From NCBI GenBank assembly GCA_051362555.1, contig CM120646.1, positions 24,276,642 through 24,301,575 of the forward strand: a stretch of 24,934 bases of DNA, given 5' to 3'. The DNA is from Lingula anatina. Its lineage: Eukaryota > Animalia > Brachiopoda. This document shows, in pieces, positions 5,639-24,557 of the stretch; position 1 is the first letter of the stretch; each line of letters opens with the position of its first letter. The notes beneath the pieces are model-generated. The model was not told the DNA's origin. It worked only from the letters and a program-made list of their open reading frames with translations, and searched no databases. The translations under genes and the position numbers were made by a program.

Positions 5639-5699
5639 ATGGATTTACTCATGTCTCCAGTGCAGAAAATGTTAAAAGACTATGAAACGGCCAAACGAG
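5639..5699 (+). CDS. elovl2/5: Fatty acyl elongase Elovl2/5-like, coding exon 1
   Basis: Acceptor ctgtcag at 5598; AAGATGG Kozak context; MDLLMSPVQKMLKDYETAKR; donor GAG|GTAAGT, phase 1; the split codon gives the D of the conserved DPR. Confidence 0.85.
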
Positions 5700-5748
5700 G
5701 TAAGTGGAGTTATGGAGTTATGGATGTAGAGGCACATTTGGTAATCAA

Positions 5749-5977
5749 AGACTGCATTCCCACAGATTTAGATCGATCCATCTGGGGACTCACGCTAAAT
5801 TGCTGTCAGTTCAAGAGGATAAATGTCTATAAAGCCTACCGAATCAGCTAAAGTAAAGATGATTACCCCCTAATAGCTTTACTAAGCGTGACAGACATTT
5901 AAGCCGGCCAAGTTGACAGCAATTTAGTGAGACTCCCCAGGGGGATAGATCGATCTAAATATCTGTGGGAATGGTCT
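5749..5977. mobile_element. Palindromic MITE, family A copy 1 (PIF/Harbinger-like)
   Basis: TIRs CATTCCCACAGATTTAGATCGATC / GATCGATCTAAATATCTGTGGGAATG; inner IR CTAAATTGCTGTCA / TGACAGCAATTTAG; similar to 24343-24557. Confidence 0.85.
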
Positions 5978-6350
5978 CAAAGACTATGTTGTAATATTGC
6001 ACTTGTCATTCTGCTGACATGTGGTAAAAGGCATATTGCATTTTGCACATCGAGTTAATTTTATTCTCGTTACTTAAATTGGAAATTTCATTCATTAGGT
6101 TTTGTGACATTATACTGGGGTAGCGCTAGCAATTTTTTTCCCTTAGCCAAATCACCTCATTTTTGACAATATGTTATCCAAATGGCTTTAATTTGACTAA
6201 AATTAGTCAAATCAAGCCCTTTTTGTTTAGCCAACTTAAGGCTAAAGAAGAAAGTTGTTCATTTTTAGACTTTTTTTTTTTTACTGCAAAATTTTCTGTG
6301 CTGCCAGGTCAGTATAATGAACAGTTAATAGTTTCCTTGCTATTTTCCAG

Positions 6351-6541
6351 ACCCAAGAACAAAAGACTGGCTTCTTATAGGAAATTCACCTTACAATGTC
6401 TGGCTTATCACAGTATTATATGTAGCATTTGTATACCTTGGACCAGTATTCATGAAAAACAGAAAGCCATTGCAAGTGCAAGGGTTGCTGGTAGCATACA
6501 ACATGGGTCTGGTTGTTTTGTCTGCTTACATGGTGATTGAG
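6351..6541 (+). CDS. elovl2/5: Elovl2/5-like, coding exon 2
   Basis: Acceptor tattttccag; DPRTKDWLLIGNSPYNVWLITVLYVAFVYLGPVFMKNRKPLQVQGLLVAYNMGLVVLSAYMVIE; donor GAG|GTAAGT. Canonical ELOVL N-terminal motifs DPR..W, GP..MKNR.P and YN. Confidence 0.96.
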
Positions 6542-7723
6542 GTAAGTGATATCATAAATATGTCATAGATGATGGGTGATATAATGGTTATTCGTAGCAC
6601 ACCCAGGTGGAATAAAAAAATCCACAAATGTGAACAACCTCAAAGTTTAAAAGAGGTTTGAGATTTATTTGTGTATATGAATGCATGACACATATCCGAC
6701 CTCATTTACACTATACATGTAGGACCATATTTGTGAAAGCTTTGCCAGATTGGCCATTAGCTAACAGCAAACAACTATAGATCTACATGTATATGTAGTA
6801 TTTCATTTCTCACTGAAATAAACTTTTAGGCTGGAGGTATTTTATCCAGTGAAAATACTTTGGATAAATACTTAAATGTTCTTAATTGAGTCTCGATCTA
6901 GGGTTCTCTCAAATTCAAGTTAAACATACCTTTTTTTGCCAAATTTGATATATTTGTTTTTTATCATTTGTCTTACCTTGCTGTACAGAAAGTACAAAAA
7001 GAACTTTAAAAACATGATAGTCTGTAAGAATGTCTTTTAATAATTGGTTATTAAATAAAATAAAAATTAGTTTTTGCTGGAAAATTGTTGGTAATGAATT
7101 CCATGTGATCAATACATCTCTGGCAAATCTGTTACACAAATGTTTGGCAGTGGGATTATTATTACTTTTCCTCTTCTATTTCTTTTATTACAACACACTT
7201 AATGGGATAGTAAACAGGGTTTTTGTTTTCTTGAATCCTTCAATTTTTTCTCCAGGTTGCTTTTTAGATCATTTATTTTTCTTGTATTGATAAAATAACT
7301 ATCCCTGCTCAAAAATTGCACTTCCAAGGAATGCATGTAGCTGTTTTATGTTTGAGTTTAGAACTCATTAGAGTGCTGTTCATAAGTGCTAAGACATTGT
7401 AAGGACCCCTGGAAGATTAGCACCCTCTACAAAGTGGCAGATAATTATGTGCACTTTTCTCTGATGCACAGTGCAGAAAAGTACCATCATTTATCTTGAG
7501 ACATATTTGTGAATATCTAGTGAAAAATCAATCTGTGGGCCTGGTAGAAATTAGAAGGTTAGTGAGTTGAGTGATAGTACCAAAATCCAATATAGATTTT
7601 ATTGAATTTGAAGTAACTTTGCAAATTCCTTACAAGATTTCCAAAGGCAGTTCCCTGTAAAATAGCACTCTTTGAAACAGACAACTTTTAGCTAATTTTT
7701 GGTCACTTGTTTCTTCTTTGCAG

Positions 7724-7816
7724 ATATTTTTGAGTTCCTTTGCTGCCAATTATGGCCTGCTTTGTGCAGAATACGATGTAGAAACTGTAGATGTGAACGA
7801 TCCCAAAGAGCTGAGG
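7724..7816 (+). CDS. elovl2/5: Elovl2/5-like, coding exon 3
   Basis: Acceptor ttctttgcag; IFLSSFAANYGLLCAEYDVETVDVNDPKELR; donor AGG|GTAAGA; phase 0/0; Y-x-x-x-C luminal loop. Confidence 0.93.
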
Positions 7817-8084
7817 GTAAGAAAAAGTACTATGTATTGCGTGGACCTTGATATGCCAAAACTATTTTTGAAACATATTTTTGAAAATTGTTTTTGGGCA
7901 CTAATTTATAGAAACTTAAAATCATGCATTAGTATTTGACATTTCTGTTGCAATAATTTATTGTCAAAAGAAATGTAAGCATTTTGGTAAATAAACAGTT
8001 CAGACATGAAGATTGTTTTTTGATTTTGATATTTAGCTAGGAAAGGTGTTTGCTCATAAAGTATTCAATGTTCTTTTTATCCAG

Positions 8085-8256
8085 GTTGCCAAAGTTTTAT
8101 GGTGGTACTTCTTCTCCAAAGCCATAGAACTGATGGACACTGTGTTAATGGTGTTGAGGAAGAAGAATGACCAGGTTACCTTTCTCCACTGGTTTCATCA
8201 CATCTCTATGTTAAATATATGGTGGTGGGTCATGGTGTTTGCACCAGGAGGCCTGT
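8085..8256 (+). CDS. elovl2/5: Elovl2/5-like, coding exon 4 (catalytic His box); gene is 3'-incomplete in window
   Basis: [57 protein letters not shown]: KxxExxDT, QxTFLHxxHH and the MLNIWW motif characteristic of ELOVL2/5; 172 nt; donor T|GTAAGT, phase 1. Confidence 0.97.
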
Positions 8257-8484
8257 GTAAGTTGGACCATTCACTAAGTATTTCTATGGGATCATAATGT
8301 ACAAAATTAATATTTTTGAACACAATACTTTTTGTACAAATAACTCATTATTATAATATTTTTTGTTGAAAGGGGATGAGGTAGGGCAATTGAATTATGA
8401 GAGCATAAATTTTCATCAAACACACACACACACACACAAGTATATATATAAGGATTGTGGGAGGGACCCCTATATTTGTGCTTT

Positions 8485-8639
8485 TACCCTAGGTAGATTT
8501 ATGAAAATTGAGATGATATTCATTACTGAATCCTAATGGCAGAAGGGTACATCTTTTTATCTACCCTAGGTAGATTTATGAAAATTGAGATGACATTCAT
8601 TACTGAATCCTAATGGCAGAAGGGTACATCTTTTTATCT
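8485..8639 (+). repeat. 77-bp tandem duplication, 2 copies
   Basis: Units start at 8485 and 8562 and differ at one position (GATATT/GACATT). Confidence 0.95.
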
Positions 8640-9847: not shown

Positions 9848-12303
9848 CTAGAGGATCAGAGAGGCGATACCGCCTCCAAATATTGTACCACCAGCTGGAG
9901 CAAACGCATTCGTATAGACCCCCACATACACAAAATAAGGGACACAGCCACCAGTTTTGTGCTTGACAAGCTGTAAAAATGCAATCAACAAGAATTTTTA
10001 AACTATTGCAAAAAATATATATGGTACAATCAAATTTAAGTTCTTCGTAAGGTAGGTCAAGGGTCAATTTCAAGGTCACAGTAAATTGCCAGTATATGAC
10101 TTCCTATTCAAGTTCAAGAGTAACTATGGACCTATCTCTGTCAAGTTTGAAGTTAAAAGAGAAAGAAATAAACAGAGTTCAGTTCATGATAAAAAGTAGG
10201 TCAAAGGTCAATTTCAAGGTCACACTTAGATTGCCAGTATAGGACTTCCTATTCAACTTCAATAGTAACTATGGACCTATCCCAGCCAGTTTTGGAGATA
10301 AAAGGGAAGCAAAATTTGCAAAATTCAGTTCATGGTGAAAAGTAGGTCAAAGGTCAATTTCAAGGTCACATTTAGATTGCCAGTATATGACTTTCTATTC
10401 AAGTTCAATAGTAACTATGGACCTATCTCAGCCAGTTTTGGAGATAAAAGGGAAGAAAAGTTTGCAAAGTTCAGTTCATGGTGAAAAATAGGTCAAAGGT
10501 CAATTTCAAGGTCACATTTAGATTGCCAGTATATGACTTCCTATTCAAGTTCAATAGTAACTATGGACCTATCTCTGCCAGTTTTGGAGATAAAAGGGAA
10601 GCAAAATTTGCAAAGTTCAGTTTATGGTGAAAAGTAGGACAAAGGTCAATTTTAAGGTCACATTTAGATTGCCAGTATATGACTTCCTATTCAAGTTCAA
10701 TAGTAACTATGGACCTATCTCTGCCAGTTTTGGAGATAAAAGGGAAGCAAATTTTGCAAAGTTCAGTTTATGGTGAAAAGTAGGTCAAAGGTCAATTTCA
10801 AGGTCACATTTAGATTGCCAGTATATGACTTCCTATTCAAGTTCAATAGTAACTATGGACCTATCTCAGCCAGTTTTGGAGATAAAAGGAAAGCAAAATT
10901 TGCAAAATTCAGTTCATGGTGAAAAGTAGGTCAAAGGTCAATTTTAATGTCACATATAGATTGCCAGTATATGACTTCCTATTCAAGTTCAATAGTAACT
11001 ACGGACCTATCTCTGCCAGTTTTGGAGATAAAAGGAAAGCAAAATTTGCAAAATTCAGTTCATGGTGTAAAGTAGGTCAAAGGTCAATTTTAAGGTCACA
11101 TTTAGATTGCCAGTATATGACTTCCTATTCAAGTTCAATAGTAACTATGGACCTATCTCTGCCAGTTTTGGAGATAAAAGGGAAGAAAAATTTGCAAAGT
11201 TCAGTTCATGGTGAAAAGTAGGTCAAAGGTCAATTTCAGGTCATAGTAAGATTGCCAGTATATGACTTCCTATTCAACTTCAATAGTAACTATGGACCTA
11301 TCTCTGCCAGTTTTGGAGATATAAGGGACTAGATGTTATAATTTTGGAGTTACCATAATGTGCCTTAAATTTCGTACAGAAAAAATTAATTAAAATAAAG
11401 AAAATGTCATTTTGGTCAAAATTCTTGAAATAAGAGGTGCTCTGAAGTTTCAGAAGTTCAAATTTGATGAAATAATGTCATTTTTGAACACAAGTTGTCT
11501 GCTTTGCCAAGCCTAATGTTTTATTTTTCCAGAGTTCAAAATTTATTATCCATTACCGTACTGCACATTTTGCTTTTACCACCAATATGTACTTTTTGAT
11601 ACAGCGTAACTCGAAAACCGTATGGAATACAAAAAACCCGAGACCACCTCCAGTGTTGGGCTTTACATGCTCTACAAAATGCAAAAAAGAATGGGTCTCT
11701 AGCATTAACGGTTCCCGAATTAGAGACAGTTTTCAGTTTCGGTATCTTATGGCCGCTACTCCCGTGAAAATGCACCGATTGACCCCAAATTCATGGAGAT
11801 CAAAGATGACCTGAAGGGTAACACTTTCCAATAATATTATTGGTTAAGTCTGTGTGGTGTCTGAATAACAGGGCAAAAAATTTTTTTTTCCTAAAAAATT
11901 TCATTTTTTTGAAAATTTTGGCCCATTTGACCTTGAAGTAAAGGTCAAAGGTCAAATCCAAGGGTATATTTGAAATCTACACATATGACTTTTGGAAAGC
12001 CGTCTATAGAAATTTTTCCCATAACTCCTTCCGTAGGGTAGATAATTAGCATTTAATTTTGCCATTTTTAGACAAGGGTGCATTGCAATGAGTGCCACAC
12101 CCAGACCCCAATACCGACAAAGCCCAAATTTTACGTGGAACGAGTTGAGATTATAGGTGACCTAAATCCATGAGATGGGTATGGGGGGCCTTACCGTCTA
12201 GGAGGAGAAGCGGTAACGGTAGCCGTCCGGCGGAGCCGGCGGAACGATCCGGACGAGACCGAAACCATGTGTACCGCCAGCGCTAACGCTGGTGGTACAA
12301 TAA
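9848..12303 (-). mobile_element. Non-autonomous Helentron/Helitron2 (HINE / DINE-1-like) element, about 2.45 kb
   Basis: Perfect 15-bp asymmetric subterminal IR TATTGTACCACCAGC (9881-9895) / GCTGGTGGTACAATA (12288-12302); 13-bp hairpin 12270-12299; GC-rich microsatellite-like tract 12211-12260; hairpin GAGGCG-atac-CGCCTC 9861-9876 next to terminal CTAG (9848-9851); T-runs at both ends on the minus strand; no TSD; central tandem array. Confidence 0.88.
10051..11328 (+). repeat. 146-bp satellite array, about 8.8 copies
   Basis: Unit anchor AGTAGGTCAAAGGTCA (with minor variants) at 10195, 10341, 10487, 10633, 10779, 10925, 11071 and 11217 (period exactly 146), plus a diverged first unit at 10051. 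Confidence 0.98.
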
Positions 12304-13294: not shown

Positions 13295-13300
13295 TTTATT
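13295..13300 (-). terminator. Candidate AATAAA polyA signal for the minus-strand receptor gene
   Basis: TTTATT on + strand about 1.7 kb downstream of the TGA at 14998; an alternative lies near 13629. Confidence 0.3.
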
Positions 13301-13795
13301 GGAGCTTTCAAAAATTAAATCAAGTTATTTTTAATATGGAAAAAGTTAATTTTAATGTAAAACAATATTGACGAATAAAAACTATATTTTATAAGAATGA
13401 TATTTCCATGGTCTAACAAAAAGACCCTTTTTTCTTTTCCTTTTTTGCTGATGAACATCACGCACCCTACATGCCTAAAATCCTGATTCATTGAATATAT
13501 TAATGTGTATAAACGATGTATCAAAAAAAGTTTGCAATTAAGTTACAAAATAAAAAGAAGCCATTACCCATTTTCAGGAACTGTCTACATAATTCTACGA
13601 ACTTAAATTTTTTAAAACATTTTTATCATTTATTGATTTATCATGACTTTTATAATTTCATATTCCCATTCTTATAATCTAAAGCTACAATATATGTGTA
13701 GATATTAAAGAAGCTGATATGTTTTTTAAAATCACGAAATGTACATCATTTTTTTAAACTTTGACATAACTGCCCCCAGATTAAGTGACTCTCTC

Positions 13796-13973
13796 AAGTC
13801 CCATACAGAACAGACGACTAACCAGTCCCAGGGTCAAACATGGTGACCCACTACAAAGCTTGCCATTTAATCCAATTATAGGCATCGAATAGGTATCCCG
13901 TGGGGAAGTATTCAAGTGGGTCGGCCATATTTGCCCCTCTGACAAGTTAGTCCCCTATTCTGAATGAGGCCTT
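13796..13973. mobile_element. Old degenerate MITE with about 58-bp inverted arms
   Basis: AAGTCCCATACAGAACAGACGACTAAC...ATGGTGACCCACT aligns at roughly 70% by eye with the reverse complement of AGTGGGTCGGCCATAT...GTTAGTCCCCTATTCTGAATGAGGCCTT. Confidence 0.6.
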
Positions 13974-14997
13974 CGTTAATATTCTTATAATTTTCAAATG
14001 ACTGCAAAGCAGAAAATGCACTGCCTGCTGTGAAAATGGCTACATTCCAATGGTAAAACTTGCCACTAGACTAGTAATAAAAACTTATGACCAGGGACAT
14101 GGCCCATAAGCTTCAAAATGAAAACATCTCAGTACACCTGAGCTTGGCTCTTGCTGGAGTAAGGTACTAGTAATTTATCTTCCAGAAGTGAGAGAGACAT
14201 TTCATGATTCAGCCTTCGTTTAACACTTGTCTTAGACTACAGTGTAAAACAAAGCCATTTTCCCCTGAACAATTTCATATTATTATAAAGTTAATAAAAG
14301 CACAGCAAATAACCAGTTGAAGTTATACAATAAAATTAGTGAGGATGAAACTTTAAAATTTTCACGATAATTCAACAAAAACAGGATCCATTAATCACGT
14401 TCCTAAAATCTGGTAAAAAAAAAGTGCTTTAAAATGGAGCAAGTCAACCACCAGTGACCTTGCTGGAAGTTAGTGATATGCCTTTGTGATTCAGATTATG
14501 ATCATTTTCAAAAATGAAATTTTGCTCCTTTTTTTAAAAAAGTGTAATCCATATACAGAAGTTTCTGGGCTAAAAACTACAAAGTTTGCTGCTGTTACAA
14601 CTTACAATTTACCCAATGCTGCACAACTACTAAATTCTGACATCAAAAGGCATAACTACACCCAACTACACACAGGCATGCACAGGCATGTTGACTATTT
14701 TTATCAAAAGCGGTTTAATACTTCAGATAATGACTCGATCTTTTCAATGGGCAAAAATTATCAGACTTTCAGATACATCATTTTAAAATCATAAAAATTG
14801 TATATTCTTTACAAAAGCATTTGTGGTGCTTTTAATGCATAAAATAAAACTATAAGGTAGTCTGCAGCTGCTTCCTTTAAATTTTGTACTAACCATAGGA
14901 ATTAATGCTCTTATTTTAAGAAATTATGACTTAAAAATATGGTATCAGTAAAACTGACATTTTTCCCCATTGACAAGTCATTACCATATATTCTGTT

Positions 14998-15129
14998 TCA
15001 AACTCTTTTTATTTCTGCGTATTCCGTGTTTTCAGGCACTTTGAGTTGTGTTTTGCGTTTGGGTACTGCAGGTTTTCCGTGGATCTGAAGATCGGCATAT
15101 ACAATACCCTCCACATTTTTCTTCAAAGG
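14998..15129 (-). CDS. Terminal coding exon of putative ITIM/ITSM-bearing membrane receptor
   Basis: Acceptor ctgtttttatttccag, phase 0; PLKKNVEGIVYADLQIHGKPAVPKRKTQLKVPENTEYAEIKRV*; ITIM IVYADL and ITSM TEYAEI; GC content higher than flanks. Confidence 0.88.
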   Translation of the reverse strand, partial: PLKKNVEGIVYADLQIHGKPAVPKRKTQLKVPENTEYAEIKRV

Positions 15130-15985
15130 CTGGAAATAAAAACAGTGTTACATTGTTTACAGAATTTTACATTTCTTCTTGTTATATCTGTCACAATTTT
15201 CTACATACAAGCTGATATCACAAAAGAAACCAAAGTTTCACTCTCAATTAGTAACAAATCACATCAACATTTGATCAAACATGCTTCCTCACACCTGACA
15301 ATTTTATGTTGAAGGGGATTGAAAAGGTCAAGGTTGCCAAATGGTTGGGTAAAGAATGAAATCATTTTCAATGGTTTGTTTCCTATCTAATTATAATTAT
15401 TATAAGAAGGATTATACATGAAACATTTAAATAATTTGAATTAGCCACTGATAGATAAATCATGTTACGCAGATTTTTAAAAACTTCATATGAAAATGTC
15501 CATTTCCAAATCTTGCAATTTAGTGTGGCAAATCAAACACAAAAGGAAATGTTTTTTTTTCTTTACCAATGCATAGTGAAGAGTTATTCACAGTACAAGA
15601 TAAACCAACTGATAGGAATCAATATAACGGATTATGCAGAGGGCAATAACCATGAAAACATACTTCAATAGATTTCAACATGAATGAAATTTTACACATT
15701 TTACACACTTAAATCAAACAGATAAAAGTTTCACACAAACAAACACAATGGCCACCCATTAGTCATAAAAATATATGATTTAGAATACATAAATAAATGA
15801 CGAATCATGCCCTACTTCTGTCTACACAACAACTACGTGTTAAATAAATATTTTTTTCTGCAAAACCAACTTTTGTTCACAAAAGAGGAAATTACAACTT
15901 TTTCAAAAATTAGTTGGTCCATCTGAGACACATCCACAATTTACTTCAAGAAATTCAGTGTTGGTGCAAATGTTAATTTGATTTC

Positions 15986-16208
15986 AGGACCATTCCCAGA
16001 CCCCACCTTCTCGCTTAATCACAATCAACTCAAGCAACCTAGATGTCGGTCACGCCTACTGAAGCAGATAGGGAGTAATTAATTATCATTTAGCAGCTTC
16101 AGTAGGCGTGCCAGACATCTAAGCCGCTTAAGCTGAAAGCAATTTAACAAGAAACACCTCAGGGATGGATCAGTTCTGTTAGATTGACCTAGGTATGGGA
16201 ACCCAGTC
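15986..16208. mobile_element. Palindromic MITE, family A copy 3 (diverged)
   Basis: Perfect 15-bp inner IR CACGCCTACTGAAGC (16051-16065) / GCTTCAGTAGGCGTG (16096-16110); shares GCGTG..GACAT.TAAGCCG with copies 1 and 2; ends GGACCATTCCCA / TGGGAACCCAGTC. Confidence 0.7.
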
Positions 16209-17831
16209 TTAGATGTAGGTAAATTGGTCTGCCTGTGTCTGTGTGTATGTGAGAGGGCGGAGGATTCAAGATGGCGGACAGTTCATGGTCCTGTCTTTTT
16301 TCTGAGAAGCACGTGTGAATGACCATAAAACATTTATCACATACAACGAGATGTCATGCTTACTCTGATGATCACAATAACACACACACACAACAGTGAC
16401 AACATCAAATATATCACATTGAATATAAACAGTGAAATCATAATAAATAATAATGCTACTGTGTCAAAGAAAATGTTATCCCCAACTAAAAGCCAAGACA
16501 ACACCAATGGCGGACCTCTTCTCCCTCACCTGCTCTAAGGTCCAGTTTATTTGAGAAAGGGCTAAGAAAATACAAGACATCTTAAGACAAAGCTGTTGTA
16601 AAAAGTGGAAAGAAAAAATACAGAGTCGAGACAAGGAGACTTTGTTATTTTTCAACATTATTAGATATATATTGGCCTGGAATGAAAGTCTGTTACAAAA
16701 ACATGTGAGACATTTACACTTGGTCCCAAAAACATAAAACAGAACATGTTCCTGTTCTCATTTCTGAGCTTTCGATCTAAAACCTACTGTGTTGCCTAGA
16801 CTGTGCTGGGTTTGCAAACATCTTCATACACGAATGGGAGATGCAAATAATCTTTTACCATTATTATTTTTCTAAACATAAATAATTGATCAATTTCATG
16901 CTTCATTTCAGAGAGATAATTGGGCTGGAAGTCCAAATCCCTACTTTCACTTCAGTGCATTTGGTTCAGTTGTAGCTGTCACACCTAACACATTCCCCCT
17001 TTGGGCCACCAACTGCTAGCGCCACCTTTAATCTCCTCTTCAATTCCTTGAACAGTAATGTCCCTTTTTAGTGAAACAGTACCACGATTTCTATTTTGAC
17101 TTCGTACACAACAGGTTAACCATTTTGCCACACCTTGTGTGTACAAACCTACTGAGCTGTGTCTTTCCCTACATTACAGGATATATAGACACCAGGGACT
17201 TTTAGTTGAGGGTCTTTTCAATTCTATGATATGAACTAAGGAAATATCTTTGCAAAATATGAAAAAGAAATTATGACGCTGGGACTTTTTCAAACATGGA
17301 TTGAATACTAGTACTTTAAATTTGTTAGAAAGAAAATGGTTGCAACTTCTAAAAACAAATCTACAGATTGCAATTAATTATTATCATTTTAATTTTTTTG
17401 CTCTACATGATAAGGAATGGCACCCACATTAAGTAATTATCAATAATGCACTCTGAGGAGAGAACGGCAATGCAGGTGCATGTTAAAAAAGGACAGTAAC
17501 GCCACACCTTTAACCTTGTGCCCAGCTTTGATGCACATAGCTCTGGGTCGCATTTCCACTTTACTTGTGACAGTTCAGCTCAGACTACACCAACTATGAT
17601 AGGAGACCAATCTAACAGTGAGTGACCTATCCAAATGGCACTGGATGCAGCAGGGCAGTGAGGGTGATTCTCATGTTTATAAATCATTATCAAATGATTG
17701 AGGACGTCTATACTGAGTTAAAATGTCACAAATTGACTGGAAATGACCCCCAAATAGGCAAGTTTGCCTCGTCATTAATAGCAAAATGCGCTACAAAGAC
17801 AAGCAAAAAAAAATTAAAAAATAAAATAAAT

Positions 17832-17990
17832 CAGAAGTGGATCCAGGACTTCGAAGGATTTCTTTTCTTTTTTAAAATTCTATACCTCTCTTGTGATGAA
17901 GGGTCTACAGGCAGTTGGGGTGGGCAGTGGGCAGAGAAGGCTGAGGACCCCCCCCTCCCTCTTCCTAACAGATACCTGGATCAACCCCTG
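17832..17990. mobile_element. Small MITE with CAGGGGTGGATCCAGG-type TIRs
   Basis: CAGAAGTGGATCCAGG vs reverse complement of CCTGGATCAACCCCTG matches at 13/16; G/C-run interior. Confidence 0.55.
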
Positions 17991-19005
17991 CATGCAATGG
18001 CATTACAACAGCAAGGCATGCATTAAGCTAGAACAGCAATGGTTATCATATACCTGATGCTACCTATACGCTGGTTACTGCTGAAATAATGGCGACAATT
18101 CGGTTATTTTACTGCTGCAATCACGATGTCTTTTATGTCAATCTTAATCTATCATATGCAAATATAAATATCACATTTTTTTGTTTTGATTCCTAAAAAA
18201 CAAACAACCTGCACAGACTGCAGTACTAAATATTCAAGAAATTCAATAATATTAAATTTTTTTTCTAAAACTGCAATCAAAAGGGATGAAATTGTATTTA
18301 ATTATATTCTGAGAACTGTATTTTTGACAATATTTTACTTGACAATGTATAATAAAAACAAATTATTTTATAATGTTTTCGAAAAAAAAATGGATACCCC
18401 TGATATTATCTCCATTCTTAGACTGAAAACACAAGAAGTATTATGTATATTGACTTAAACCCAAACTCTTACATCTTTAAACAGCGCTAGAGTGAAAAGC
18501 ACATAAGAAAAAAGATCATTGATTTTTTTCAGGGAGGAATGGCAAACAGTGTGAGACTGAGGCTTTTATGATCAATGTCAAAATCAAAAGATATCAAATA
18601 TTCAGACCAACAACTCATCCTCCTTTTATTACTTGGAAGAAAATAATCATAAGAATTTAGAAATGAAATATCTGACAAAACACCTGCAATAAAGGAGTGG
18701 CAAAGCAGACAGACATTAGGAATGCACGGTTGAACAGATACACAAGACCCTTCCTGCAAATACTGAAATATTAACACCACCTGAATTTTCCTCGTGACAC
18801 GTGCACGCCCTCGAGCTCTCTCAGGCATTAACGACACAATATCCCAGAAATCAATTTCAAGGAGCTAGCTCATCCGAGAAAATTCCTAATCAATATCAGA
18901 TAGGGTCAATTTTGCAAGAGCTGCTGAAGCAAATTAATAAAGATGATGCTAATCCGGCATGCTGCGTTAATGGAAGACCCATTATCAAGGCGTCTTCTGT
19001 GATTC

Positions 19006-19197
19006 TCGTCCACGCAGCACATGCCAGTCCTTAATCAGTAGGATGGGTATTAAATTGGCCCTGAAGGCACAGACATGCAATAGCATAGTAACGCAGGCAG
19101 TTAAGTATTTATAACTAATTGAGCTAATTGCAAATCCACTCGGTTCATGTCTTCGGATTTGGCTGCAATTTCGAGATTTCATGATGCTGCGTGGCGA
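19006..19197. repeat. Imperfect inverted repeat, probable old MITE
   Basis: TCGTCCACGCAGCACATG (19006) vs CATGATGCTGCGTGGCGA (19180-19197). Confidence 0.45.
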
Positions 19198-20568
19198 CCC
19201 CTATCCATGGGCCGGGGCACCTTTACCACCAGTGCATCCTGGGAAGTAGACTGTATCAACCCCATGCTGTTAGTTTATCCATAGTCCTGGACCACATATA
19301 TAAGCAGAGATTCCAAGATTTTGCTTTCTTTGACTTCAAGTTCAGCTAAAGCGTGCAGTCAATGTAACAAAAGTTATAAGTAAGGGCCCTTCATCTGCAT
19401 GATCAAGAATACATATATCTGCACACACACAGGGTGGCAATGCTGGTGCGAAAAAAGCCATAATAAGTTTAAGCCCCTCCTCTGTATAATAAACACCATA
19501 CATGACCCCATGTCTAAGGAGGTGCTAATTAGCGTGTCCAAACTTGACAGCATGTAATATTGATGGAGTGTTATCCCCCTGTGGCTTGCGTGCAGCACAC
19601 CCTCACATAACGACCCCCGCATGTAATATGCATGACTCTAGGAGACGGCATTTCACGAACTATAGTACTATGTATGAGTTACTACAGAGTGGGCAATAAT
19701 GAGAGAGGGTCTTAATGAGACAAATGGTCATCCACTGGTGAGCTATTTTCCTGTTAGTCTCTTTAACTCTCTTTTTATTCAATATTTACTTGATTAATAA
19801 TGTTCAACTTTTCCTTTTTTCATTCTTTACTTTTTCCTTTACTATATACCTCTTTTCATTATTCCTTCACACTAATATGCAAGTTCTTTTTGGGTTACAT
19901 AAAGGAAAAACTTACTCCTTCCCCCCAAACTTTTGCCACTGTGAGAACACGAACCCTAATTTGCCCACCTTACACCTTCCCATGCCTGATGGCGCCACAG
20001 GCACGGAAGTCAACATACTCTTTTTTTCTTGAATATTCTGTACAGCCAAACCATTCTAGAATTATTGGACGAAATAATAACCAAAATGAAGAGAAACCAA
20101 TTAGAGGCCTATTCTTAAGTTCATGCTTCAGCATGAAAATGATTCCTTTCCTTTTTTTATCTAGTAGAGAGTTTCCCTGCCATTAGCCAAAGGGGTGGTT
20201 GCTGCTCTCTTGTTACCATAAAAATCAATGCAGTTATTTGTGAAAACAGCCAAGATCACCTGCTCCTTTGCCTTGACTAATAAAGTACAGAAAACACTAG
20301 ACAGAACAAGACAAAGTACATTTTAGTTTTTACCACTTTCAACAAAGATATCCTGAAAGTCCAAATACTATTACTGAAAGAAAACAACAAACAGACAAAC
20401 AAACAAAAACCTTTAACATCAGTCCTAAAATATGATAGCTGTTTTTAAGATCAGGATTAAAAAAAAAAAATTATTGTAGTGTCATTGATAGTGTTATTTT
20501 ATCAATTAGGAATTTAAATTGCTTAAAAGCAATGTGAAACACCTGTAGGTATAGTGTTATAAACTTAC

Positions 20569-20656
20569 ATCATCCTCCTTAGTAAAGTTGCCGTTCTTGT
20601 CATCCATATGTTCTGGGCTACTGTAGCCATCATTGGGGGCGCCCTCTGCATCTGGT
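20569..20656 (-). CDS. Receptor cytoplasmic-tail exon (penultimate)
   Basis: Acceptor tcctttcactttcacttccag, donor GAT|GTAAGT; phase 2 to 0; PDAEGAPNDGYSSPEHMDDKNGNFTKEDD; splices in frame to the terminal exon. Confidence 0.82.
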
Positions 20657-21663
20657 CTGGAAGTGAAAGTGAAAGGAGATAAACATATGATTTGTGTGCA
20701 GACAATTCAAGAAATAATTCATTAAATGACACAACAATTAAGAGAATAAAATGAGATGTCAATGCATTTTTACATTACTTAGGACATTTATCTTTATTGA
20801 ATAGATTTCAAGAGTATCATTGTGAAGAAACACCCATTTTCTTTTCTTTTAACCTTTATAATGAAAAGCAACATACAAATAAAATACTAATTAAACACAA
20901 GTGGGTGATGTAATTTTCTAATGTCAGATGGTTAGATGGTCATATTTGGTGACAGTATTTGACAATGTACATTAATTGAATAAATGATTATTGAGATTCA
21001 AAATTAATTTGTTCAGCATTCTGATCCCTCGTCGACTCGATCTGTATTAATTCAAAGTCACAGTCCAGTCGTATACAGTTTTTATTTAACCCCCTCCCCT
21101 CACTACTAAAAATCTTCTCTACGCATATTTCCTCGTAATTATAGTATTGTGGTTCTCTTTGATCATCATTAGGGCCTACGCTAACCTTCCCCATCATATA
21201 CCAAACTATGTGAGTGTGTACAGTGTAAATGTCAGTAATGTGGGGGTAACCTTCTCCACAGAGAGCCTGACATTCAGGCAGGGTCAGGACTACAGGTGGA
21301 GCTACTACCTTGTCTTTACTATGGTATTTGGGTGTTGAGAGAGAAAACAGCACCCTGGTCTAAATATACACCTCAGGACAGTGCTGGAAAGTGGTGGTTT
21401 TTCAGAAGCTTTGAATGATTTTGTTCATCCCTCGTGTGCAGTGTGAATTTGCAACTATTTACTTTTATTTTCTGATCTAAGGAAAAGGATTTTTAACTTT
21501 CGTTTTCTGTTAGTAGTAATCAAAATTTATTTTAGTAGTTTACTTAGAAACATTTAATAAGTAAATATACAAAACAACAGGTTGTGAGTGAAAGTTTTGA
21601 TCATTTTTGGGACATAGTCTTTTAACCAGTCTGATACACATAATTCATAACCAAAGGCCTAAC

Positions 21664-21689
21664 TAATTAATTAATTAATTAATTAATTA
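21664..21689. repeat. (TAAT)n microsatellite
   Basis: About 6 tandem TAAT units. Confidence 0.85.
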
Positions 21690-22213
21690 CTTCTGACAAC
21701 AGGGCCAAATATAGTGTTGGGATGCTCATGTTACAACTTGTTGGGGAGACTTGGAAAAGAAATCAATTTAACAGGTGTATTAAAAATACACACAATTTTC
21801 TGGGTTATCAATAAACACGCTGATTTTCAAGTTAAAAGTGACAACATGAAATGGAAATTGCATGACAACATGGTCTGAAAACCAAACATCATGGAAGGTG
21901 ATTAAGCATGCACCACTGCACACCATCTGCAAATAAAAGCACGAAGACACGGAAAAAAGTTGTTTACTGATCACCGAAGTCTTTGATTTTTTTTATACAA
22001 TCAACCAAAATAAACATAATTATCTTAGGGTTGGGCACAAAATAAATAACCAAAGTGATATATTTACTTAAACTTTCAATAACAATTCAAATCAAACATG
22101 AGAAAAAAATATGAATAAAAACGGAGGAGAAACATACACAGAAATCATGGTGATGAATAATACGGTTGTCCAAAAACTGATAATACGTAGAAATGTTGTG
22201 ATGAATTCATTCT

Positions 22214-22257
22214 GGGCCATTCCATAGTAGTCTTGAAGAAGTATCATGGAATGGCCC
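22214..22257. repeat. 44-bp hairpin with 12-bp perfect stem
   Basis: GGGCCATTCCAT-20 nt-ATGGAATGGCCC. Confidence 0.85.
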
Positions 22258-22284
22258 TATAACAAATAATCTAAGATACCATAC

Positions 22285-22332
22285 CTATCTTTGAATACAC
22301 AGGCTTCATAGGTAGCCTGCTCCTGTGCATGT
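22285..22332 (-). CDS. Candidate 48-nt receptor-tail microexon
   Basis: Donor AG|GTATGG; acceptor tttttatccaatttgtattaag (weaker AAG type); phase 2/2; HAQEQATYEACVFKD(R); in frame with both neighbours. Confidence 0.5.
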
Positions 22333-22753
22333 CTTAATACAAATTGGATAAAAATCACAATGAAAATATGATACAATCTTTGGTAAAATGTTAAATATTA
22401 TGCAAAAAAACTATTTCTATAAACCAAATTTAATCTCGTAGTCCATGGTACTTAAAATACATATCACCTACCAAAAGACCCATCTTGATTTTCTTTTTTA
22501 TGAAATGGGCATGATAGCTGCTGCTGGGAAAGCTAGCTAAATATAAAGCTTAAGCATGCAAATTTGTTTTCTGGATAGAAAAACTTACCAGAATCTTACC
22601 AAATCTGTTGAACTTCAGATATTAAATAGCAATATAATCCATACAAACAATTATCAGAATGTCTCTTTTTGTCAATGAAGTTCCTTAAAAATGATCATGC
22701 AGCTAGTGTAACTATTAAGTCTAAGGCTCCATTCACATTTATACCTTCCAAGC

Positions 22754-22889
22754 TGTCACATCTAACGCAATTTCACATCCAATGCAATGTCACATCCAAC
22801 GCAATGACACATCCAACACAATGTCACATCCAATGCAATGTCACATCCAACACAATGTCACATCCAACAATGTCACACCTAACTCAATG
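22754..22889 (+). repeat. 17-bp minisatellite, about 8 copies
   Basis: Consensus TGTCACATCCAAYRCAA. Confidence 0.92.
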
Positions 22890-23941
22890 CCATCTCTATA
22901 TTGTTTCTGCAGAATTGTAGTATTCTCCAAGGAATCTTAATAATCTAATGCAAAATAATGCAAGCAATAAATCTGATAAACAAAGCTCATTTGAAGGGGC
23001 CCCTTCAATGTGTATTATGCTACTGCTTTTGTTAAGGATAGTCAAACGCCATACTTTGTCATTATAAAAAAGCCTGTTATCTGTGCCAACAGAGACAGTC
23101 TGCCAGGTCAGTGTCATACAAATTTGACACTCCTTGTGACTGGTAAAAGGCATATGGTGCAATAGGCAAATGTGTTGGCTAGGTTGCAATCAGCTGACTA
23201 TTCAGGTATTCAGCGGGGGATAGATTATTACCTGAACCACTTAGCGAGCACTTTCAAAGCTCAGCAATGCCTGGGGTATCTTAATAGCAACTTTGGCTCA
23301 GGCCAGAAAGCTTGTATTTTGTGACAAATATTTGCATTGATTGAAATGATTTGTACTACCAAATTACTGTAGTAAAGAAATCAGGTGAAAAATAACAGCA
23401 GCTACTTATTAATACCAATATGAAAGAGGTTATAGCACAGTGTCAACATCTGGTTAAAACATAAGATTCTGAAGCAGAGATAGCTCAATCACTGAAAAAT
23501 AGAATCATAAACTACCAGAAGGTAACGCCAAACACACATATTAGTAGTTTTAATAACCCACAGCAGGATGCAAGGGAGGATAAAAATGTAACCAAAAAGG
23601 AAAACATCAAAAATATCAACTAAATGACAATACTTGATGCCTTTTTTTTTAATTGATTATTCTACCAGAAGAAAAACTGGTCAAGTTCTCTCCTGGTTTT
23701 CACCAGTACTAGGCAAATAAAAATGCCAAGACCACTAAACATTTTCTTATATTTTCTCCCTCCTCCCCTCCCTCTCCCCCACCCCCACCCCACCCCACCC
23801 CCAGCAGACATAAACAAGCCATTGCAGTGGGCTGTTGCAGATGCAGGGAAATGTTGAACCTTGTAGAGAGGGTGTCTGTCAATCAAGATTGTAAAAAAGA
23901 AAAAGGTTAAGGAAGAACAATTGAATAAGAACTCTACTTAC

Positions 23942-23977
23942 ACAAGGGAGTAGGTATGCCCACTATCAGTGTGAGGA
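23942..23977 (-). CDS. Candidate 36-nt receptor-tail microexon (gene continues beyond window)
   Basis: Strong acceptor tttgttgcttctttcag and donor GTAAGT; phase 2/2; PHTDSGHTYSL(V); phase matches the downstream exons. Confidence 0.68.
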
Positions 23978-24342: not shown

Positions 24343-24557
24343 GACCCCATTTCCAGAGATAAGATCGATCTACTTAAGATCGACCTAACTCCCTAGGGGT
24401 TCACGCTAAATAGCTGTCAGCCGAACGGGCACGAAAGTTAATTACCCCCTTCCAGTTTGTAGTAGGCGTGACGGACATTTAAGCCGGATTATCTGACAGT
24501 AATCTAGTGAGACTCCCCGCGGGGATAGATCGATCTAAAAGCTCTGTGAATACTCCC
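24343..24557. mobile_element. Palindromic MITE, family A copy 2, TTA flanks
   Basis: AGATCGATCTA / TAGATCGATCT subterminal IR; interior TCACGCTAAAT.GCTGTCAG...ATTACCCCC...GCGTGAC.GACATTTAAGCCGG...TAGTGAGACTCCCC shared with 5749-5977; TTA at 24340-42 and 24558-60. Confidence 0.85.

Follow-up and report, generated by a model that had tools for sequence, protein, structure and literature searches.

A Lingula anatina Ig-domain protein that looks like an ITIM/ITSM inhibitory receptor, and its paralogs with tyrosine kinase domains

The stretch of DNA analyzed here, a window of 24,934 nucleotides from the brachiopod Lingula anatina (contig CM120646.1 of assembly GCA_051362555.1, forward-strand positions 24,276,642 to 24,301,575), carries on its minus strand the 3′ end of a gene for an immunoglobulin (Ig)-domain receptor, XP_013389163.1, hereafter P0001. 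The gene is real, expressed, and spliced, and it is already annotated, although its RefSeq label, “cell adhesion molecule 3-like,” is uninformative. By its architecture P0001 looks like an inhibitory receptor with an ITIM (inhibitory motif of the immunoreceptor tyrosine-based kind) followed by an ITSM (the switch motif of that kind), for which SHP binding and inhibition are predicted. Judged from the predicted proteins, related ectodomains in the same species appear to be joined to opposite intracellular modules: the ITIM/ITSM tail in P0001 and an intact tyrosine kinase in its paralogs.

Both tail motifs lie in exon 4, whose coding part (14998..15129, minus strand, 132 nt) encodes 43 residues and a TGA stop. 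The ITIM, IVYADL (15088..15105; Tyr452 of P0001), and the ITSM, TEYAEI (15010..15027; Tyr478), are 26 residues apart, and the ITSM ends three residues ahead of the stop. An earlier note on this DNA had recognized the pair from the sequence, and both motifs indeed fit the published consensus forms, S/I/V/LxYxxI/V/L for an ITIM and TxYxxV/I for an ITSM (PMC8631942); here and below, statements on published work refer to the parts of the cited papers that were available. The ITIM of BTLA, IVYASL, is identical to IVYADL at five of six positions, and alanine at pY+1, present in IVYADL, favors SHP1 (PMC8631942). The spacing of 26 compares with 25 in PD-1 (Y223/Y248; PMC7078208). Taken alone, the pair carries little weight and is not far beyond chance: a frame running from an ITIM through an ITSM to a stop arose in 23 of 300 windows drawn from a dinucleotide model.

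Among five candidate proteins, only one, the 484-residue P0001, has a C terminus that matches the 43 residues of exon 4, and it does so at 100%. P0001 comprises a signal peptide, a V-set (32–121), a C2-set_2 (142–228), and an I-set/Ig_3 domain (249–325) according to Pfam, and a single transmembrane (TM) helix, hydrophobic and uncharged, near 356–376; it has no kinase domain. The expectation that the tail belongs to a type I receptor with a TM exon upstream is thus borne out by a database protein whose tail comes after three Ig domains and a single TM helix. The window itself covers P0001 only from about residue 400 on, and the ectodomain exons, which lie outside it, rest on the RefSeq model. 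An extra cysteine in V and another in C2 are common to the four full ectodomains checked and may link the two domains.

The tail is expressed and constrained, because reads cover exon 3, the junctions are found, and the variants in that exon are all synonymous. Four of nine same-species RNA runs, with 9.5–12.4 million records each, were aligned, to 20520–20710 only, the region around exon 3 (20569..20656, minus strand), an 88-nt cytoplasmic exon of phase 2-0. All four cover the exon (265, 275, 15, and 63 reads) with sharp edges beyond which depth is about zero, and in the stranded runs the RNA over it comes from the minus strand. The loose ends of these reads reproduce the predicted junction of exon 3 to exon 4 (20569 to 15129) in every run (115, 154, 5, and 35 reads). 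On the 5′ side, exon 3 is spliced straight to an upstream juxtamembrane exon of P0001 that ends in EEKETSRSNV and lies outside the window (172, 151, 4, and 43 reads). Exon 1 (23942..23977, minus strand), a minor 36-nt cassette exon of phase 2-2 that adds a YxxV motif (YSLV), is joined to exon 3 by 20, 24, and 4 reads, with none listed in the fourth run. The nine variants observed in exon 3, at eight places, are all synonymous, where synonymous changes make up 18% of the possible changes and 32% of the transitions; the exon is under purifying selection. Most of these synonymous variants come from run X7, and exon 3 reads per record differ about 14-fold from the study P1 runs to those of study P2; both observations suggest that the runs differ in tissue or population.

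These data revise part of the earlier gene model, which had chained four minus-strand exons into a tail with five tyrosines. All four segments are present, with AG/GT ends and matching phases, and when joined they encode 100 residues with tyrosines at 9, 20, 39, 68, and 94; as a chain, however, they are partly wrong, exon 1 being minor and exon 2 unsupported. This exon 2 (22285..22332, minus strand, 48 nt, with an AAG acceptor and a GTATGG donor) is an in-frame candidate to which no read group corresponds among the reads over 20520–20710 in the four runs, and the RefSeq model, composed of exons 1, 3, and 4, does not contain it either. Reads that include it should amount to a few percent at most, because they would pool at position 20658 with the major group, and agreement there is 0.97–1.0. 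The intron span 23941–20657 holds 36 further open, phase-matched AG..GT candidates, none of which passes a stricter splice filter. Because most reads skip both upstream exons, this stretch of the tail has three tyrosines rather than five in the main form, which falls 12 residues short of the RefSeq model.

Searches with the TM helix and tail recovered five other proteins (among 219 candidates) and searches with the ectodomain six (among 1670), all of them from Lingula; only these paralogs pass 1e-10. Five of the six ectodomain relatives have a tyrosine kinase domain, and the sixth, P0013, is an ectodomain-only model. The kinase catalytic motifs checked are all intact in P0002–P0005, the kinase of P0006 is truncated, and the paralog kinase domain scores about equally against the FGFR1 and RET structures. 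P0001 is 72–73% identical to P0003/P0004 in V, 95–97% in C2, and 98% in I, with 26 of 29 TM residues shared. No charged TM residue, a feature of the activating members of classic vertebrate paired receptors, was found in P0001 or in the five kinases. Four of the database proteins (P0003, P0004, P0008, and P0012) are RefSeq isoforms of one kinase gene, with identical kinase domains and many differing C2, stalk, and TM residues, suggesting that duplicated ectodomain cassettes feed one kinase or that alleles have been merged. P0005 has an FN3 domain where V stands in the others. P0006 carries two juxtamembrane tyrosine motifs (VYTDL and SPYAEI) and is a possible intermediate between the kinase and tail types.

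Variation among these ectodomains is greatest in the first domain. The four distinct V domains are 72–78% identical in pairwise comparisons, and variable sites make up 40 of the 103 positions of V, compared with 10 of 99 for C2 and 23 of 106 for I. In the V domain, the differences concentrate on the predicted ligand face, with 34 of 55 sites variable on the BC-C-C′-C″-F-G side and 6 of 48 on the back, according to strands assigned from a six-sequence AlphaFold model of low confidence (mean predicted local distance difference test score, 55).

The family could not be traced beyond Lingula. P0001 has the layout of CADM and nectin-like proteins (V plus two C-type Ig domains), and nectin-1 and Necl-4 are among the best whole-ectodomain fold matches, at a target template modeling score of about 0.5 and 17–19% identity. 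Orthology to CADM/nectin proteins was considered and rejected, the Necl-4 match (5e-8) being weaker than those to PTPRD and others. An FGFR-type ectodomain was likewise discarded, as the 60 best of the 99 PDB matches for P0001 include no FGFR. A protein atlas search returned generic Ig clusters only. The earlier note had made its reading depend on conservation of the tyrosine motifs in orthologs; here no orthologous tail was found in a sequence search of 1.84 billion representatives or in two word-based searches. Because that library should contain a representative of P0001's own cluster, the search is too insensitive to prove absence. The single match to exon 4 among the 1.84 billion, a mosquito repeat protein, was rejected as spurious. 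Literature searches, with most subscription journals outside their coverage, found no paper on this Lingula family.

We propose that P0001 is the inhibitory member of a diversifying set of Ig-domain receptor tyrosine kinases (RTKs), damping the kinases through an SHP-type phosphatase, and we put the chances of this at about even. A ligand would bind the front face of the V domain, the receptor would come together with one of the kinase paralogs or with a Src-family member, and that kinase would phosphorylate Tyr452 and Tyr478. SHP-2 or SHP-1 could then dock by its two SH2 domains on the phospho-ITIM and phospho-ITSM pair, and the bound phosphatase would lower kinase output. A further step, which we hold more weakly, is that the V domains diversified under pressure from pathogens or from self/non-self recognition, much as those of vertebrate paired receptors do. 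We infer every step of this mechanism beyond the sequence itself; the immune role and the shared ligand are likewise proposals. A bolder version, which we consider possible though doubtful, is that a brachiopod built a paired-receptor system for self/non-self recognition out of an RTK cluster: the V domains would diversify on their binding face while the constant domains stay near-identical, activation would come from the intrinsic kinase, and a PD-1-like tail would be phosphorylated by its kinase twin, which would thereby switch itself off.

Several observations weigh against an inhibitory pairing. The reads link the tail only to the juxtamembrane exon, so that the tie to the V domain of P0001 is that of the RefSeq model, and this is a near-identical tandem family, in which models can be chimeric; P0003 and P0004, for instance, are called isoforms yet differ in C2. 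That P0001 and five of the six paralogs lie on one scaffold is at most suggested by the equal largest-contig size (593,503) listed for them. The failure of the searches to find an orthologous tail counts on the same side, and the variants come from exon 3 alone. The V domain of P0001 differs by 22–28% from that of every kinase, so the ligands may differ and “pair” may mean kinship only; the members of classic paired receptors often have similar ligand domains. The V-face argument is weakened by the low confidence of the model and by a boundary between the faces that was drawn after the variable sites had been seen, which makes the p-value optimistic. Because the kinase paralogs hold a juxtamembrane YAEI of their own, this motif might serve docking in general. 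Shuffling tests asked whether exon 4 descends from the juxtamembrane region of the kinases. For the whole tail against four kinases, 1, 25, 90, and 647 of 2000 shuffles reached the score, a signal driven by YAEI; when the motifs were kept in place, the score was reached by between 352 and 2680 of 3000 shuffles of exon 4, which is not significant. Finally, SHP recruitment can raise ERK signaling, as it does for FGFRL1 (PMC12026108).

The last point leads to a different view of the tail, in which P0001 has no kinase but works as a co-receptor or adaptor, bringing in SHP-2 or Src so that signaling is promoted or rerouted and not inhibited. FGFRL1 would be its model: this relative of FGFRs lacks a kinase, binds SHP-1, and increases ERK phosphorylation (PMC12026108). 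The paralog kinases of Lingula are FGFR/RET-like and have the same YAEI core. The motif of FGFRL1, however, is a compact YxxLYxxI (PMC12026108), whereas P0001 has an exact ITIM and then an ITSM, with PD-1-like spacing, at its C terminus, and we regard this alternative as rather unlikely. We would say the same of P0001 as a receptor that stands alone, serving adhesion or recognition through a ligand of its own, and whose likeness to the kinases reflects recent duplication or exon shuffling and not joint function. A V domain only 72–77% identical to that of any paralog, with its changes on the predicted binding face, would suit such a receptor, as would the nectin-1 and Necl-4 fold matches, but the C2, I, and TM regions are near-identical to those of the kinases and no relative was found outside this set.

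Two further alternatives concern what the tail does and whether it belongs to P0001. A kinase-less copy might be a passive decoy that uses its YxxL/I motifs for endocytosis and competes for ligand or forms dead dimers. YxxΦ also fits sorting signals, and the ectodomain-only model P0013 exists; against this, both motifs carry the −2 residues of an ITIM or ITSM and the pY+1 alanine, neither of which sorting signals need, and exon 3 is under purifying selection. We therefore consider a decoy improbable, even though the tyrosine motif of FGFRL1 controls trafficking (PMC12026108). It is very improbable, in our judgment, that a kinase locus has this tail as an alternative 3′ end, with one ectodomain spliced to either kinase or ITIM tail, or that P0001 is a chimeric database model. 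Near-identical C2 and I exons do invite misjoining, and in P0003 and P0004 one and the same kinase is combined with differing ectodomain parts. Yet EEKETSRSNV, encoded by the read-joined exon, is present in P0001 but absent from all five kinase proteins aligned, and the signal peptide, V domain, and stalk of P0001 also differ from those of the kinases.

The proposed inhibitory role has parallels in several known systems. PD-1, BTLA, SIRP-alpha, and the CD33-related Siglecs have, like P0001, an Ig ectodomain, a TM helix, and an ITIM followed by an ITSM, but there is no sign of orthology to them, the PDB sequence and fold matches being generic Ig matches at about 14–21% identity. Known paired receptors oppose ITIM members to ones coupled to an immunoreceptor tyrosine-based activation motif (ITAM), and in vertebrates the activating partners engage ITAM adaptors through a charged TM residue and have no intrinsic kinase. 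P0001, to judge from its predicted protein, is not a classic vertebrate paired receptor, as it is without a charged-TM ITAM partner. An ITIM has been attributed to the SAML protein of Geodia cydonium, which our search did not confirm. The RTK and SAML/SAMS proteins of Geodia form the nearest precedent, an Ig-domain RTK beside Ig receptors of like ectodomain, tied to self/non-self recognition (PMC11926128). They have two Ig domains, with polymorphism over both (PMC11926128), whereas P0001 has three, with variation in its set focused on the front face of V, and an ITIM plus an ITSM.

Invertebrate Ig-ITIM receptors are already known, and the unusual part of the Lingula set is the kinase twin. In the known receptors the ITIMs accompany an Ig ectodomain or one of another kind. 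In oyster, CgNCAM1 has two ITIMs, binds CgSHIP2, and dampens inflammation (PMC11841013). The Alr family of Hydractinia (10.1101/2022.03.04.482883) and FcoR of Botryllus, a paired system (PMC12582321), mix ITIM members with ITAM or hemITAM members; the activating ones described there use ITAM/hemITAM motifs, in contrast to the tyrosine kinase domains in Lingula. The part available of a review of the invertebrate Ig superfamily names CgIgIT2 and no RTK–ITIM pair (PMC11999971). FGFRL1 resembles P0001 in design, with three Ig domains, no kinase, and an SHP-1-binding tyrosine motif (PMC12026108). It is, however, old and conserved as a gene and has a His-rich tail, whereas P0001 is a young, lineage-restricted paralog with a V-C2-I ectodomain, a diversifying V, and no His-rich end. 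If the proposal is right, a lophophorate's set of kinase and ITIM/ITSM receptors whose V face is hypervariable would represent an independent route to the logic of paired receptors and would link invertebrate RTK gene expansions to recognition. If only the tail holds, P0001 is one more invertebrate Ig-ITIM receptor, from a gene already annotated.

The remainder of the window holds other features. A putative 3′ UTR of the receptor gene (untranslated region; 13295..14997, minus strand) has AATAAA sequences starting at 13634 and 13300, from a motif scan only, and a 17-bp minisatellite of 8.1 copies (22754–22889) lies inside a receptor intron. Facing the receptor on the plus strand is a fatty-acid elongase gene (ELO/GNS1-SUR4; 5639–8257), with Pfam matches at 6332–6565 and 8037–8294 that extend as far as position 139 of the 242 in the profile. 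Neither a motif scan nor 108 of the 123 plus-strand frames of at least 36 residues yielded a later elongase exon, the other 15, in a tandem array, being left out; the 3′ half of the gene consists of short exons, is missing, or is mis-assembled. That array (10052–11328; 8.8 copies of a 146-bp unit with 93% matches) lies a short way downstream of the final elongase exon identified, and a 77-bp tandem duplication occupies 8485–8639. Related short elements with inverted ends, recognized by eye at about 24390–24530, 16030–16180, and 5750–5970, possibly form a family of miniature inverted-repeat transposable elements.

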